The translations under genes and the position numbers were made by a program. DNA of 8,641 bases from a virus (taxonomy: Duplodnaviria; Heunggongvirae; Uroviricota; Caudoviricetes): the IMG/VR virus record IMGVR_UViG_2671180299_000012. The stretch is one strand, 5' to 3'. This document shows positions 2,681 through 8,641 of this stretch, piece by piece (within the stretch, counting starts at the first letter, position 1; each line of letters starts with the position of its first letter). The notes beneath the pieces were generated by a model. That model saw nothing but the letters and a program-made list of their open reading frames with translations. It was not told the origin of the DNA and searched no databases.

Positions 2681-3148
2681 ATGAACCGCGTACTGTGCGT
2701 GGTCATCATTGCCCTGCTGGTGGCCTGTGGTGCGCTTAGTCTGGGGCTGAATCATTACCGTGATAACGCCATAACCTACAAAGAGCAGCGCGATAAAAAA
2801 GTCAGTGAGCTGGAGCAGGCAAATGCAACCATTACTGATATGCAGCAGCGCCAGCGTGATGTTGCTGCACTTGATGCCAGATACTCGAGGGAATTAGCCG
2901 ATGCGAGAGCTGAAAATGAAACTCTTCGCGCTGACGTTGCCGCTGGTCGTAAGCGCCTGCGGATCAACGCCACCTGTCCAGGCTCCGTGCGTGAAGCCCC
3001 CGCCACCTCCGGCGTGGATAATGCAACCGGCCCCCAACTGGCAGACACCGTTACACGGGATTATTTCACCCTCAGAGAGCGGCTGATGACGATGCACAAG
3101 CAACTGGAAGGGGCACAGGACTATATCCGCACTCAGTGCCTGAAATAA
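2681..3148 (+). CDS. Rz-like inner-membrane spanin (i-spanin)
   Basis: 155-aa ORF with an N-terminal TM helix (VLCVVIIALLVACGALSLGL) and a charged, coiled-coil-prone periplasmic domain. It lies downstream of the endolysin and carries a nested +1-frame lipoprotein ORF, which is the classic Rz/Rz1 architecture. Confidence 0.85.
   Translation: MNRVLCVVIIALLVACGALSLGLNHYRDNAITYKEQRDKKVSELEQANATITDMQQRQRDVAALDARYSRELADARAENETLRADVAAGRKRLRINATCPGSVREAPATSGVDNATGPQLADTVTRDYFTLRERLMTMHKQLEGAQDYIRTQCLK
2901..3086 (+). CDS. Rz1-like outer-membrane lipoprotein spanin (o-spanin), embedded in the Rz gene in the +1 frame
   Basis: 61-aa ORF wholly inside Rz (alternative ATG at 2916). It has a signal peptide with a lipobox (LPLVVSAC) followed by a short proline-rich mature region (CGSTPPVQAPCVKPPPPPAW), the hallmark of Rz1 proteins. 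Confidence 0.8.
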   Translation: MRELKMKLFALTLPLVVSACGSTPPVQAPCVKPPPPPAWIMQPAPNWQTPLHGIISPSESG

Positions 3149-4185: not shown

Positions 4186-4551
4186 ATGGCTGAGCTTCGT
4201 ACACTCCAGAGCAGAATCAAAACACTGAATACCCGACGGGTGAATATTCTGAAGGGTGAACAGCGTCGTGTCAGTGGCAGTGCACGTGTTTCCCTCAAGC
4301 GTCATATCTGGCTCAGGGACGCCGGGCAGTGCCGTCTCTGTGGTCGTGTGGTTGACCTCTGTGACAGTGAACTCGATCACCGAATTGCACTTCAGTTCGG
4401 TGGTGGTAATGAGGAGACGAATCTCTGGACGCTCTGTACCGAATGCCATCGACAAAAGTCTGCTCGTGAAGCGGCGAGTGATATGCCGGACCCGACGCTG
4501 CCGGAGGTGTCCGGAGGTAGTGGCAGAGAGGACGACATCATCGGACTGTAA
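4186..4551 (+). CDS. HNH endonuclease (packaging-associated HNH of cos-type, HK97-like phages)
   Basis: 121-aa ORF with a CRLCG ... DHRIALQFGGGNEETNLWTLCTECHRQK HNH/zinc-finger motif. It sits immediately upstream of the cos-like region and terS, the characteristic position of HNH proteins that assist terminase in HK97-like phages. Its last 23 codons (from 4483) lie inside tandem repeat copy 1. Confidence 0.85.
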   Translation: MAELRTLQSRIKTLNTRRVNILKGEQRRVSGSARVSLKRHIWLRDAGQCRLCGRVVDLCDSELDHRIALQFGGGNEETNLWTLCTECHRQKSAREAASDMPDPTLPEVSGGSGREDDIIGL

Positions 4552-5003
4552 CCCGACCCCGGGGGGGGTATCATCCGGCGTAAAAAACGATCGCTTTGGA
4601 CACCGCCCCCCGTCTCACGCAGAGAAAAAATTCCCGTTTCAGGGCAGTTAACATGTTAACTGGCTGTCCGGGCATTTTTGCGGTTTTTATCTTTATTATT
4701 CAGTTTGTTGCGTGGAAAAAATGTTAACAGGCTTTTTCAGCAAATGTTAACCAGGCAGCAGTTAACATTTGCGGCATGAGACGCCGGGAAAAATGGGCTG
4801 AACCATACCCGGCTGAGTGCGTTATGGACCCGGGAGGAGGCTGTGCTGACAACGCAAAAACGAAAATTTGCGCTGGCGCTCATGTCCGGGAAAAACAAAA
4901 CAGCGTCAGCCATTGCCGCTGGTTATTCGGCGAAGACCGCCAGGGTTAAAGGCTCGCAGCTGGCAAAAGATCCGGAGGTGCTTGCGTTTATAGCCCGTAA
5001 ACA
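4483..5003. repeat. Tandem direct repeat, copy 1 (~521 bp): HNH 3-prime tail + cos-like intergenic region + first 161 bp of terS
   Basis: Direct comparison with 5008..5526 gives about 13 differences in ~520 bp, including a 2-nt indel (ACCCC versus AGC before a G8 tract). The 161 bp of terS coding sequence is identical in both copies. Confidence 0.9.
4645..4768. promoter_or_regulatory. Putative cos / terminase-recognition region: 18-bp perfect palindrome plus ATGTTAAC motif array (copy 1)
   Basis: CAGTTAACATGTTAACTG (4645-4662) is a perfect 18-bp palindrome. Further ATGTTAAC motifs lie at 4721-4728 and 4744-4751, with the inverted form GTTAACAT at 4761-4768. The region sits between the HNH gene and terS, where cos lies in HK97/lambda-like phages. 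Function is inferred. Confidence 0.4.
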
Positions 5004-5076
5004 AGGTATGCCGGACCCGACGCTGCCGGAGGTGTCCGGAGGTAGTGGCAGAGCGGACGACATCATCGGACTGTAA
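4843..5076 (+). CDS. Duplication-derived chimeric ORF: terS N-terminal 55 codons fused to the duplicated HNH C-terminal tail (possible pseudogene or decoy)
   Basis: GTG start at 4843 with the same GGGAGGAGG RBS as the full terS. Residues 1-54 are identical to the terS N-terminus (MLTTQKRKFALALMSGKNKTASAIAAGYSAKTARVKGSQLAKDPEVLAFIARKQ). At the repeat junction (~5004-5007) it switches to GMPDPTLPEVSGGSGRADDIIGL, the HNH tail with one E-to-A change. Confidence 0.5.
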   Translation: MLTTQKRKFALALMSGKNKTASAIAAGYSAKTARVKGSQLAKDPEVLAFIARKQGMPDPTLPEVSGGSGRADDIIGL

Positions 5077-5526
5077 CCCGAGCGGGGGGGGTATCATCCG
5101 GCGTAAAAAACGATCGCTCCGGACACCGCGCCCCCTCTCACGCAGAGAAAAAATTCCCGTTTCAGGGCAGTTAACATGTTAACTGGCTGCCCGGGCATTT
5201 TTGCGGTTTTTATCTTTATTATTCAGTTTGTTGTGCGGAAAAAATGTTAACTGGCTTTTTCAGCAAATGTTAACCAGGCAGCAGTTAACATTTGCGGCAT
5301 GAGACGCCGGGAAAAATGGGCTGAACCATACCCGGCTGAGTGCGTTCTGGACCCGGGAGGAGGCTGTGCTGACAACGCAAAAACGAAAATTTGCGCTGGC
5401 GCTCATGTCCGGGAAAAACAAAACAGCGTCAGCCATTGCCGCTGGTTATTCGGCGAAGACCGCCAGGGTTAAAGGCTCGCAGCTGGCAAAAGATCCGGAG
5501 GTGCTTGCGTTTATAGCCCGTAAACA
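5008..5526. repeat. Tandem direct repeat, copy 2 (~519 bp)
   Basis: See copy 1. The offset between copies is 525 bp before the indel and 523 bp after it. Copy 2 runs directly into the remainder of the full-length terS. Confidence 0.9.
5168..5291. promoter_or_regulatory. Putative cos / terminase-recognition region (copy 2)
   Basis: Same 18-bp palindrome (5168-5185) and ATGTTAAC motifs (5244-5251, 5267-5274; inverted 5284-5291) as copy 1. All motif cores are identical between copies; the substitutions fall between them. Confidence 0.4.
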
Positions 5527-5929
5527 GTGCGAGACGGTGGAGGTGGATGAGGTTCCTGTTTACCGGCAGAAAAAATCAGAGCAGGAGGATAAACCCCGTC
5601 GCCGTGAGGCGGCTGCAATACCACAGCCGGACGAAAACAATCCGGAGATGCCACCGTCCGCGGTGATGTCTCCTGGTATTGAATATATGGAGGATGGTCT
5701 TCCCGATCCGGTGAAAGCCATGGGGCGGATCCTGGTGGAAAACCTCTGCATTGATCCGAAACTGGCACTGGATGCGGCCTGGCGTCTGGCGCAGTTCACG
5801 CACCATAAAAAAGGGGATACCGGGAAAAAATCGGCAAAAGGTGATGCCGCGAAAAAAGCGGCTAACCGTTTTGCGGTGCCACCGCCACCCCGACTGGTGG
5901 TGAATAACGATAATGAGGAAAGCGGATGA
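5366..5929 (+). CDS. Terminase small subunit (Terminase_2-type)
   Basis: 187-aa ORF with a GTG start and GGGAGGAGG RBS. The N-terminus LTTQKRKFALALMSGKNKTASAIAAGYSAKTARVKGSQLAKDPEV matches the conserved HTH DNA-binding region of small terminases. Its stop overlaps the terL start (ATGA at 5926-5929), indicating translational coupling. Confidence 0.85.
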   Translation: MLTTQKRKFALALMSGKNKTASAIAAGYSAKTARVKGSQLAKDPEVLAFIARKQCETVEVDEVPVYRQKKSEQEDKPRRREAAAIPQPDENNPEMPPSAVMSPGIEYMEDGLPDPVKAMGRILVENLCIDPKLALDAAWRLAQFTHHKKGDTGKKSAKGDAAKKAANRFAVPPPPRLVVNNDNEESG

Positions 5930-7587
5930 TACCTGTATGGAGCACAGCCTGCCCGGACTGGGCAGAGCGCCTGAAAAAGGGGCTGTCGATTATTCCGGAT
6001 CCGATTTATCCGGACGAGGCCGCACATGCCCTGGCGATTTTTAAACAACTGCGGATTGTGGATGCACCTGGTAGCCCGACGTTCGGGGAGTCCTGTGCAC
6101 CGTGGGTGTTTGACCTGGTGGCGGCCCTGTTTGGCTCCTACGATGCGCAGACCGGTGTACGCCATATCAAGGAAGTTTTTATCCTTATCCCCAAGAAAAA
6201 CTCGAAGTCCACGCTGGCCGCGGGGATCATGATGACGGCGCTGTTACTGAACTGGCGGCAGGCGGCGGGTTACACGATTCTGGCCCCGACTGTGGAGGTG
6301 GCGGCCAACGCCTTCAACCCTGCCCGGGATATGGTACGACGTGACGATGATCTGGATGACCTCTGCCAGGTACAGACCCATATCCGGACCATCACCCACA
6401 GGGTGACAGACACCACCCTGAAGGTGGTGGCAGCCGATCCGAATACGGTGTCCGGTATCAAGTCCGTGGGTACGCTGATTGATGAGTTGTGGCTGTTTGG
6501 CAAGCAGTGCAAGGCGGAGGACATGTTACGTGAAGCCATAGGCGGCCTTGCCTCCCGCCCGGAAGGGTTTGTGGTGTATACGACCACCCAGTCGAATGAA
6601 CCGCCCGCCGGGGTATTCAGACAGAAACTGCAGTACGCCCGGGATGTGCGCGACGGCAAAATTCATGATCCGCACTTTCTGCCGGTGATATTTGAATACC
6701 CTCCTGAAATGGTGGAAAGCGGGGCTCACCTGCTGATGGAAAACCTCGCCATGGTCAATCCGAATCTCGGCTATTCAGTGGATGAGGCCTTTCTGTACCG
6801 GGAGTACCGTAAAGCCCGGGAAGCCGGTGAAGAGACATTCCGGGGGTTCATGTCAAAACACGCCAATGTGGAAATTGGTCTTGCCCTGCGCTCTGACCGC
6901 TGGGCGGGGGCTGATTTCTGGGAAGAGCAGGGCCGTTGTATCAGCCTGGACGATATCCTGCGTCGTGCTGATGTGGTGACGGTGGGGATTGACGGCGGAG
7001 GGCTGGATGATCTGCTGGGGATGTATGTGATTGGGCGTGACCGGGAGACCCGCGAATGGCTGGGCTGGGGCCATGCCTGGGCGCATGAAACCGCGGTGGT
7101 CCGACGGAAGAGCGAGGCGTCCCGGTTTCAGGATCTTGTTGCCTGTGGAGATATGACCATTGTCCGGCGTGTCGGGGATGACACGGCGGAAGTGGCGGAA
7201 TATGTGCGTCGCATTCATGAGGCTGAGTTACTGGACCATATCGGTATTGACCCGTCAGGGGTGGGGCAGATTCTGGATTCACTGGCGGAAGCCGGGATCC
7301 CCGACGGAATTGTGGTGGGGATAAGCCAGGGCTGGAAACTGGGCGGGGCCATTAAAACCACCGAGCGCAAACTGGCTGAAGGGGTGCTGGTGCATGGTGA
7401 CCAGCCCCTGATGGCCTGGTGTGTCGGCAATGCCCGGGTGGAGCCTAAAGGTAACGCCATTCTTATCACCAAACAGGCCAGTGGACGGGGAAAAATTGAC
7501 CCGCTGATGGCGCTGTTCAATGCGGTCTCCCTGATGTCCCTTAACCCGGAACCGAAAAAGAAAGAATATGCGGTTTTTTTCATATAA
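5926..7587 (+). CDS. Terminase large subunit (HK97-like Terminase_1 family)
   Basis: 553-aa ORF with a deviant Walker A-like PKKNSKST, a Walker B-like LIDELW, and nuclease-domain acidic motifs (VTVGIDGGGLDDLLG, GIDPSG, KIDPLMALFNA). Its size and position right after terS fit a large terminase. Confidence 0.9.
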   Translation: MIPVWSTACPDWAERLKKGLSIIPDPIYPDEAAHALAIFKQLRIVDAPGSPTFGESCAPWVFDLVAALFGSYDAQTGVRHIKEVFILIPKKNSKSTLAAGIMMTALLLNWRQAAGYTILAPTVEVAANAFNPARDMVRRDDDLDDLCQVQTHIRTITHRVTDTTLKVVAADPNTVSGIKSVGTLIDELWLFGKQCKAEDMLREAIGGLASRPEGFVVYTTTQSNEPPAGVFRQKLQYARDVRDGKIHDPHFLPVIFEYPPEMVESGAHLLMENLAMVNPNLGYSVDEAFLYREYRKAREAGEETFRGFMSKHANVEIGLALRSDRWAGADFWEEQGRCISLDDILRRADVVTVGIDGGGLDDLLGMYVIGRDRETREWLGWGHAWAHETAVVRRKSEASRFQDLVACGDMTIVRRVGDDTAEVAEYVRRIHEAELLDHIGIDPSGVGQILDSLAEAGIPDGIVVGISQGWKLGGAIKTTERKLAEGVLVHGDQPLMAWCVGNARVEPKGNAILITKQASGRGKIDPLMALFNAVSLMSLNPEPKKKEYAVFFI

Positions 7588-7612
7588 CCCTGTTCACACT
7601 GTAACCATCACG

Positions 7613-7637
7613 AACCGCTCCGGCGGTTTTTTTATTT
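7613..7637 (+). terminator. Weak terminator-like hairpin between terL and the protease gene
   Basis: ACCGC-tccg-GCGGT stem followed by TTTTTTTATTTT at 7627-7638. The stem is short; function is uncertain. Confidence 0.3.
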
Positions 7638-7650
7638 TCAGGAGGCTGAT

Positions 7651-8641
7651 GTGACTCTTAAACGGGCCTGTTCCCTGCTGACGGTGAAATCCTTCAGTGA
7701 GGATGAACGGGTGATCACCGGGATTGCGTCAACACCTTCTCCGGATCGGGATGGTGACATCCTGGAGCCGGAGGGCGCGGAGTTTGGCAGTGCGATCCCG
7801 TTTCTCTGGCAGCATGACCATTCCCGCCCGGTGGGGCAGTGTACGGTACGCCGGGTCAGCGAAGGGCTGGAAATCACGGCAACACTGGTGAAGCCCGTAC
7901 CGGATATGCCGTCGCAACTGGCTGCCCGGCTGGATGAGGTCTGGGCGGCCATTAAGACCGGGCTGGTCAGGGGGCTGTCCGTGGGCTTCCGTCCCCATGA
8001 ATACACCTTTCTGGACGGAGGCGGACTGCATTTTCTGCGCTGGGAACTGATGGAGGTGTCTGCCGTCACCGTGCCCGCGAATGCGGAATGCACCATCCGG
8101 ACCATTAAATCTTACGACCGCCCGTTTTCTGCCGCGTCCGGCAACCGGAAACCGGTGGTGAAAATCGCATCTTCTGCCGGCGCTGCGGCACAGTCAACAA
8201 CCGTTTTTCATAAGGAAAAGACCATAATGAATATTGGCGAACAGATTAAAAGTTTTGAAAACAAGCGTGCAGCGCTGGCAGCCTCCCTTGAGGAGGTCAT
8301 GACCAAAGCCGCAGAGGAAGGGCGCACGCTGGATGTGGAGGAGGAAGAGCATTACGACAACACCGCAGCGGAAATCCGTCAGGTGGATGCGCACCTGAAG
8401 CGTCTGCGTGAACTGGAAGCCGGTAAGGCCGCCACGGCGCAGCCGGTGAAACAGGCCGGTAACGGGAATGTGGCCGCGGTGGCTTCTGCGCCGGTGATCC
8501 GTGTGGAGCAGAAACTGGATAAGGGGATTGGCTTCGCCCGCTTTGCCAAATCGCTGGCTGCGGCTAAAGGCGTCCGATCTGAAGCCCTGGAAGTGGCCCG
8601 TCGTCAGTATCCGGATGACAGTCGTCTGCATCATGTCCTGA
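7651..8641 (+). CDS. HK97-family prohead protease continuing in frame into the major capsid protein N-terminal delta domain (3-prime end outside the window)
   Basis: GTG start at 7651 with AGGAGG 5 nt upstream. Frame 1 stays open to the end of the window, which is why it is missing from the ORF track. Residues ~1-150 carry prohead-protease motifs (ITGIASTPSPDRDGDILEP, FLWQHDHSRPVGQ, LSVGFRP, WELMEVSAVTVPANAEC). After a Ser/Ala-rich linker, an internal ATG at 8227 (AAGGA RBS 10 nt upstream) begins a coiled-coil sequence (MNIGEQIKSFENKRAALAASLEEVMTKAAEEGRTLDVEEEEHY...) typical of HK97-like capsid delta/scaffold domains. Confidence 0.75.
   Translation, partial: MTLKRACSLLTVKSFSEDERVITGIASTPSPDRDGDILEPEGAEFGSAIPFLWQHDHSRPVGQCTVRRVSEGLEITATLVKPVPDMPSQLAARLDEVWAAIKTGLVRGLSVGFRPHEYTFLDGGGLHFLRWELMEVSAVTVPANAECTIRTIKSYDRPFSAASGNRKPVVKIASSAGAAAQSTTVFHKEKTIMNIGEQIKSFENKRAALAASLEEVMTKAAEEGRTLDVEEEEHYDNTAAEIRQVDAHLKRLRELEAGKAATAQPVKQAGNGNVAAVASAPVIRVEQKLDKGIGFARFAKSLAAAKGVRSEALEVARRQYPDDSRLHHVL

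Follow-up and report, generated by a model that had tools for sequence, protein, structure and literature searches.

Introduction

In phage HK97 the prohead protease (gp4) and the major capsid protein (gp5) are encoded by separate genes, and the portal gene lies between the gene for the large terminase subunit (terL) and the protease gene. Fusions of protease and capsid are unusual but recurrent: they have been described in Arthrobacter clusters AM, AU and AN and in Rhodococcus RRH1 (PMC5513430; bioRxiv 10.1101/2020.01.10.891226), and Gifsy-2 of Salmonella is cited for a fusion of its prohead protease and coat genes (PMC12315714, citing Effantin et al. 2010). Here we study a fusion of this kind at the 3' end of an 8,641-nucleotide stretch of tailed-phage DNA (IMG/VR record IMGVR_UViG_2671180299_000012), which we refer to in its full length as the window. 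The gene joins a protease of family S78 to a delta domain and an HK97-family capsid body, and we pay particular attention to ATG 8227, a candidate internal start codon that coincides with the first delta-domain residue.

The gene shares several features with each of these systems. Like HK97, it combines an S78 protease with a capsid protein of the same Pfam/TIGRFAM family with an N-terminal delta domain, and in both phages a terminator-like hairpin stands ahead of the protease gene. Like the gene of Gifsy-2, an experimentally studied precedent for protease-coat fusion, it belongs to a lambdoid prophage and unites protease, scaffold-like middle and coat. The actinobacteriophage fusions likewise hold the functions of capsid maturation protease and major capsid protein in one gene, in different hosts and lineages. 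A Pfam scan of our fusion finds Peptidase_S78 and no ClpP or S49 family. Gifsy-2 reportedly has a ClpP-like protease and a lambda-like head with a decoration protein, whereas the protease of the window belongs to S78; the two fusions are functional analogues and not homologous.

Separate precedents exist for the nesting of one gene within another. In lambda C/Nu3, herpes simplex virus 1 (HSV-1) UL26/UL26.5 and HFTV1 gp17/gp17.5, an in-frame internal start yields the scaffold without the protease, and in lambda both nested starts are preceded by Shine-Dalgarno (SD) sequences (bioRxiv 10.64898/2026.09.13.751334). Our gene resembles these systems in that an SD and a start codon are conserved before a scaffold-like delta domain. 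It would differ from them in its product: the C/Nu3-type systems make free scaffold, while the nested product of the window would consist of delta domain and capsid body.

The closest relatives of all are already in the databases. Proteins 95-100% identical to that of the window are found in the Shiga toxin (Stx) phages 2851 (Pankowvirus), BP-4795, YYZ-2008 and 1717 and in O157-type lambdoid prophages, whose head modules have the same order of HNH endonuclease gene, small terminase subunit gene (terS), terL, fusion, a 73-residue open reading frame (ORF; orf73) and a long portal gene. Nothing substantive differs in the fusion region between these modules and the window, whose source adds a tandem duplication of ~523 bp 5' of terS. 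Pseudomonas phage PAJU2 is more distant: its ORF003 is 48% identical over the full length, and terminase, fusion, small ORFs and portal follow in the same order. GenBank records of Stx phages call the gene 'major head protein/prohead protease', and the label given to PAJU2 ORF003 is 'prohead protease fused capsid protein'. Both the fusion and its gene order are thus already known and annotated, and apart from its conserved internal start signal the layout is ordinary. The PAJU2-related papers that we consulted give no virion protein data on the fusion.

Protease, delta domain and capsid share one conserved reading frame

Translation of frame 1 over 7588-8640 is open from GTG 7651 through the end of the window, with ATG 8227 in frame. 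The fusion is absent from the list of ORFs compiled for the window because it runs past the window's end. To follow it further we use L001, a prophage locus of E. coli MB06102, which matches the window with 100% identity across positions 5900-8641 and supplies the full ORF of 645 residues. An earlier reading of this DNA, made from the letters without database searches (the sequence-only reading), had claimed that the protease and the capsid N-terminus form one frame without a stop codon, and had described such fusions as known but not the commonest arrangement. Both statements hold: the two domains lie together in the L001 ORF, and the published fusions cited above, together with the annotation of PAJU2, provide the precedent. 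The N-terminus of the fusion, MTLKRAC, agrees with that of homologues having an ATG start. A minimal ORF (ATG-TGA, 7649-7654) overlaps the GTG start of the window's gene (gctgATGTGActc), and the homologous position in relatives is a plain ATG start.

The protease half is readily assigned. In addition to its Pfam match (Table 1), it aligns with HK97 gp4 by BLASTP with E = 4e-8, and His55 and Ser110 are invariant among relatives (alignments A1-A3). In gp4, His65 and Ser114 are the catalytic residues. The NCBIfam model TIGR01543 (proheadase_HK97) scores 46.5 bits, under its equivalog cut-off of 59, and on these profile scores the protease is a member of the S78 family but not an HK97 gp4 equivalog by the NCBI criterion.

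The window ends at residue 330 and therefore includes protease, linker and delta domain, with the capsid body entirely outside. Since the window holds no capsid body, naming the C-terminal part 'capsid' rests on L001, where the ORF matches Phage_capsid (PF05065) at residues 386-635 (53.1 bits, cut-off 24.2) and NCBIfam TIGR01554 (major_cap_HK97) at residues 204-584 (78.1 bits, cut-off 27.5). Inspection of the sequence downstream, which the sequence-only reading had proposed, thus finds on this identical locus the capsid C-terminus, followed by a 73-residue ORF and the portal gene. In PHROGs, phrog_617 spans the whole fusion (residues 1-639 against a 626-position profile, E = 1e-261). The NCBIfam model NF045541 (scaf_prot_MCP2, prohead protease/major capsid fusion) reaches 54 bits against a cut-off of 525 and represents another fusion lineage. 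Membership of the capsid family is carried by profile hidden Markov models (HMMs), because the capsid body has no significant BLASTP match to HK97 gp5 (E = 0.64); a sequence search of the PDB with the fusion gives a single marginal capsid match, to the major capsid protein 9d9w (E = 0.0017). Between the two enzymatic and structural parts, the delta domain is predicted to form two long helices (residues 195-222 and 229-261), which are the only moderately confident part of an AlphaFold2 (AF2) model, with a predicted local distance difference test score (pLDDT) of 75-78. The pattern EQI...KRA...EGRTLD is conserved there, and the TIGR01554 alignment sets in at residue 204. Positions 7651-8641 of the window are the first half of a real, conserved 645-residue gene, whose single polypeptide starts with an S78 protease, continues through a flexible linker and the helical delta domain and ends in a capsid body of the HK97 family.

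How widespread is this gene? Region 5900-8641 of the window is present at a coverage of at least 80% in 1,244 of 5,426 complete E. coli genomes (1,258 if any match is counted) and in 93 phage records, which include the Stx phages 2851, YYZ-2008 and 1717; the isolated Stx phage BP-4795 carries the fusion as well. A word-indexed search returns 2,494 relatives, and among the best 120 of these nearly all have 644-647 residues and both Pfam domains (Salmonella, Enterobacter, Klebsiella, Serratia, Kosakonia and Pantoea). Genome contigs of Methylobacterium, Haematobacter, Brucella and Chelatococcus hold further full-length fusions, which are 46-49% identical. An exhaustive HMMER search of 50%-identity representatives yields 1,183 clusters with E <= 1e-30; most of the top 150 representatives have 630-680 residues and match residues ~4-641, and the fusion clusters, which number in the hundreds, extend to Alpha- and Betaproteobacteria and Pseudomonas. 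Where a locus carries both halves they are fused in 92 of 93 cases. With identities of 38-53% across bacterial classes, the fusion is, on sequence divergence, ancient.

The lone unfused relative that we found, L013, is a second copy in Brucella daejeonensis (L013 6001-8024) in a genome that also holds a fused copy, L011. In L013 the protease stops at a TAA codon and a separate capsid gene follows in another frame.

Three predicted proteins among the relatives (P0001, P0123 and P0132) are longer, 1,079-1,094 residues, with ~440 additional N-terminal residues ahead of the fusion, and P0001 additionally has a TerL_ATPase match in Pfam. These extensions may be read-through from terL by way of frameshift or assembly errors.

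Conservation of a start codon and SD-like sequence where the delta domain begins

The conserved SD and start codon at the junction are the only part of this locus that goes beyond existing annotation, and we consider them a modestly interesting lead. Met193 is invariant among Enterobacterales, yet the ~20 residues that precede it vary more, and carry more indels, than any other part of the protein. In each of the 41 distinct junction sequences, (A)AGGA(A) or GGAGG stands 7-11 nucleotides ahead of the start codon, and the residues encoded over this SD differ from one to the next (K-E-K, K-G-N, Q-G-N, T-G-N, K-G-T, K-G-I and K-E-G). The junction Met column is preceded by an SD-like site (dG <= -4.3 kcal/mol) in 100% of a set of 36 sequences that share less than 97% identity. 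When the energy of each junction SD is ranked against the in-frame positions of its own ORF and the ranks from 15-17 lineages are combined, we obtain a Fisher p of ~1e-8.

Codon choice in the linker points in the same direction. Every junction that bears the linker glycine encodes it by GGA or GGG, and in all the enterobacterial ones except L007 the codon is GGA; over the whole gene GGA accounts for 8% of Gly codons, and none of the 27 invariant Gly columns reaches at least 90% GGA.

The start codon persists further out. Ten further divergent lineages (38-53% identity) all have a start codon where the delta domain begins or at most three residues away. This codon is ATG in seven of them, and in the three lineages where Val replaces Met it is GTG each time. 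PAJU2 has a strong internal AGGAGGG and an ATG at the start of the delta domain. Capsid proteins that stand alone begin at the same place: the first 1-5 residues of P0198, P0229, P0257, P0262 and P0266 lie opposite residues 193-196 of our query, and the separate capsid gene of L013 starts with GGAGG-N6-ATG at the position homologous to Met193.

The sequence-only reading had pointed to an internal ribosome-binding site and ATG at 8227 as a possible source of independently made capsid protein. Both elements are indeed present and are conserved across lineages, a pattern which suggests nested expression like that of lambda C/Nu3. We lean slightly towards functional initiation at ATG 8227 behind AAGGA, which would give a delta-capsid product without the protease.

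A hairpin between terL and the fusion gene

Ahead of the fusion gene the window has a hairpin with stem ACCCGC/GCGGGT (7612-7629), followed by the T-run TTTTATTTTC. Its predicted fold of -10.9 kcal/mol (z = -1.4) is unremarkable by itself. The hairpin is present in all 14 aligned enterobacterial relatives with 100% of the alignment cells in the stem paired and with variable loops, and the window's lineage carries one compensatory change in the stem, from C-G to A-U. Covariation support is modest, with 35 of 500 shuffles reaching the observed value. Alphaproteobacterial relatives that retain the fusion do not have the hairpin, and an Rfam search of the window matched no family. With its GC-rich stem-loop and T-run, the element has the shape of an intrinsic (Rho-independent) terminator, and any termination activity is putative. 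It was called weak in the sequence-only reading and was thought to set stoichiometry; the structure is there, but its conservation speaks against the first description and its position against the second. Because it lies 5' of both starts, 7651 and 8227, the hairpin cannot set the ratio of protease to capsid, and at most it could affect the level of terminase relative to head genes, or mRNA stability.

Weighing the alternatives

Taken as a whole, a conserved protease-delta-capsid fusion gene in a head module of fixed order is the explanation that we favour, and we hold it with good confidence. One could instead suppose that errors of sequencing or assembly, or decay in a defective prophage, produced the open frame, which would then mask a stop or frameshift between separate genes, and the sequence-only reading had itself worried about a missed stop or frameshift at ~8100-8227. 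Protease and capsid are more often encoded by two separate genes, as in HK97, L013 keeps them apart, and the tandem duplication close by in the window is a sign of unusual assembly or recombination. However, 1,258 complete genomes share this open frame, as do viable phages that were sequenced independently and 92 of 93 loci, and the frame is also open in relatives of 38-53% identity from other bacterial classes. This conservation excludes a missed stop or frameshift, so we reject the artefact and assign it virtually no weight. It is also improbable, if less extremely so, that the hairpin and T-tract work as a terminator whose attenuation determines the ratio of head proteins. The canonical terminator shape, its conservation among enterobacterial relatives and a putative terminator annotated at the analogous place in HK97, before gp4, would fit such a role. 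Placed before both starts, however, the hairpin could only lower transcription of the head genes relative to terminase; it is missing from the alphaproteobacterial carriers of the fusion, and the covariation is modest. Late transcription in lambdoid phages is antiterminated by Q and reads through terminators of this kind, and Q-modified transcription would be expected to pass the hairpin.

The more serious competitor concerns the internal start. All subunits could be made as the full 645-residue polyprotein, a single product, with the SD and Met193 being an ancestral relic, a pause site or a by-product of a linker rich in Lys, Gly and Glu. Several observations sit well with this: of the two starts, the one for the full-length product has the stronger SD (AGGAGG), purine-rich linkers tend to resemble SDs, and Gifsy-2-type fusions are described as fused genes with no nested start reported in the texts consulted (PMC12315714). 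A literature search of limited reach found no report of an internal start in a protease-capsid fusion, which does not prove that there is none. A number of our own results also weigh against internal initiation or limit what can be drawn from them. The window's internal SD is only moderate, with equally good scores at 21.6% of the in-frame positions of its ORF, and as the score at this single locus is unremarkable our case for the internal site does not stand on the window by itself. Two of the 17 lineages, L099 and L101, have weak SDs, and the lineages combined in the Fisher test are not fully independent. Among the other conserved Met columns, eight in number, M580 alone likewise has an SD-like sequence upstream in every sequence, and the run of three GTG codons has a chance probability of ~0.065. 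We infer processing, cleavage site and internal initiation alike for this gene, and the AF2 model of the fusion is poor (mean pLDDT 40.6 and predicted template modelling score 0.24, from a shallow alignment of 18 sequences), so the fold assignment rests on sequence profiles. On the other hand, a relic should have decayed in the least conserved stretch of an ancient fusion, yet motif, spacing and start codon persist; where Met is lost GTG takes its place in all three cases; the linker glycine is GGA or GGG in every junction that has it, while in the rest of the ORF GGA makes up 8% of Gly codons; and a pause site would need no start codon 7-11 nucleotides to its 3' side. We therefore regard a single full-length product as possible but rather doubtful.

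Proposed course of expression and processing

By analogy with the established biology of HK97 and Gifsy-2, the capsid moiety would assemble the procapsid shell, and the tethered protease and delta domain would end up inside it. The protease would then excise itself and the delta domain near K331|S332 and leave a mature capsid protein of ~314 residues. We predict this maturation site because SAVGAGTTTDPQWAGSL resembles the aligned segment of HK97 gp5 and because mature gp5 starts at Ser104. Tethering would replace the C-terminal targeting that carries a free protease into the shell. Internal initiation at 8227 would mean that only a minority of subunits bear the protease. In the fullest form of this scheme, to which we give an even chance, the locus is a three-in-one nested gene, with a minority of full-length product from 7651, the bulk as delta-capsid from 8227, and the relative strengths of the two ribosome-binding sites setting the dose of protease per procapsid.

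The fusion and its gene order are established traits of a very common prophage head module, which includes the medically important Stx1-, Stx2a- and Stx2c-converting phages. Automatic annotation that says only 'major capsid protein' or only 'prohead protease' hides half of the gene's function. An internal start, if true, would explain how a covalent fusion of protease and capsid escapes having one protease per subunit. It would also be a bacterial example, within a capsid gene, of the nested protease/scaffold strategy of tailed phages, archaeal tailed viruses and herpesviruses, and the scheme would span a large family of proteobacterial phages.

Table 1. Features of the terL-fusion region of the window, in order of position.
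Feature	Position	Strand	Basis and remarks
terL, large terminase subunit, 553 residues	5926..7587	+	Pfam TerL_ATPase and TerL_nuclease; PGAP annotation in L001; directly 5' of the fusion gene
Terminator-like hairpin and T-run	7612..7639	+	Terminator scan; stem 7612-7618 / 7623-7629, loop TCCG; abuts the fusion SD
SD AGGAGG, strong, for the full-length product	7640..7645	+	Read from the sequence; in alignment A5 GGAG is invariant, AGGAGG in 11/14
Protease-delta-capsid fusion ORF, 5' part (330 of 645 codons)	7651..8641	+	Open frame with GTG start, runs off the window; PGAP coding sequence at the same position in L001
Peptidase_S78 core (HK97 gp4-type prohead serine protease), residues 48-152	7792..8106	+	Pfam PF04586, 34.7 bits against cut-off 21
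His55	7813-7815	+	WQHD motif; by BLASTP one residue off gp4 His65
Ser110	7978-7980	+	By BLASTP opposite gp4 Ser114
Variable, indel-rich linker, probably disordered, residues 156-192	8116..8226	+	Least conserved stretch in alignments A1 and A4; AF2 pLDDT 23-26
Internal SD-like AAGGA	8212..8216	+	10 nucleotides 5' of ATG 8227
In-frame ATG, Met193, first delta-domain residue, candidate internal start	8227..8229	+	Start codon there or at most 3 residues away in all lineages examined
Delta (scaffolding-like) domain, residues 193-330 of about 331	8227..8641	+	Window ends one codon short of the predicted cleavage K331/S332

Gene order and the position of the portal

The gap between the end of terL at 7587 and the start of the fusion at 7651 is 63 nucleotides, too small for a portal gene, so no portal lies between them. 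The sequence-only reading had concluded that the portal must be elsewhere and that the order is non-canonical. The portal is indeed elsewhere, as the next large gene downstream in relatives, and the order does differ from that of HK97, yet it is the norm for the whole lineage: tblastn mapping finds terL, protease(-)capsid, small ORF, portal and head-tail connector in all 13 genome loci, L013 included. PAJU2 and the metagenome contigs L099, L102 and L103 have the same order; in metagenome contig L101 the ORF after the fusion has no recorded Pfam match. In L001 and in the relative L002, outside the range of the window, the gene downstream of the capsid gene matches TIGR01537 (HK97-type portal) with 349.5 bits (cut-off 112). 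The head module of this lineage thus runs HNH, terS, terL, protease-capsid fusion, small ORF, portal and head-tail connector, and the seemingly missing portal sits downstream in what is the standard order of the whole lineage and not a local rearrangement.

The small ORF, of 73 residues, lies just past the window's end (L001 15734-15955) and overlaps the start of the portal gene. It matches phrog_829 (function unknown) and no family in Pfam or NCBIfam; six of seven enterobacterial relatives from genome contigs have it at 53-58% identity, with no match in L007. The portal gene that follows is annotated as frameshifted in L001 (15901-18485), in a genome identical to the window over 5900-8641, and the prophage that carries L001 may be defective.

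The 'portal' itself has 859 residues in L002 (12901-15480), with an HK97-type portal at residues 45-388 and an extension of ~440 residues with tandem repeats of ~62 residues. This extension is homologous to PAJU2 ORF007 (BLASTP E = 1e-27), a repeat protein which PAJU2 encodes in a separate gene after the portal, whereas the E. coli lineage joins the two; L099 and L103 also have a separate ORF of similar size after the portal. With this 859-residue protein the head module contains a second gene fusion.

On the 5' side, an HNH endonuclease gene (window 4186-4551) directly precedes terS and terL. Enterobacterial relatives other than L007 keep it there, and weak Pfam matches indicate the same for the metagenome contigs L099 and L101. 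An HNH gene next to terS and terL is the arrangement of HK97-like cos packaging modules.

Other features of the window

A tandem duplication of ~523-525 bp occupies window positions 4482-5006 and 5007-5530, with 95-97% identity between the copies. It spans the last ~23 codons of the HNH gene and the HNH-terS intergenic region and reaches to about codon 55 of terS, and it yields a truncated terS' ORF (4843-5076), at the end of which the HNH C-terminal peptide is repeated. The top-ranked complete E. coli genomes have a single copy only, with a query of 1,251 nucleotides mapping onto ~727 bp. Unequal crossover between co-resident paralogous prophages and an assembly artefact are both possible causes.

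Further upstream, an Rz-like lysis ORF (2681-3148), for which the L001 annotation gives 'lysis protein', encloses a smaller ORF in another frame (2901-3086) with a lipobox, LVVSAC, and a proline-rich tail. The two look like the nested Rz/Rz1 pair typical of lambdoid phages.

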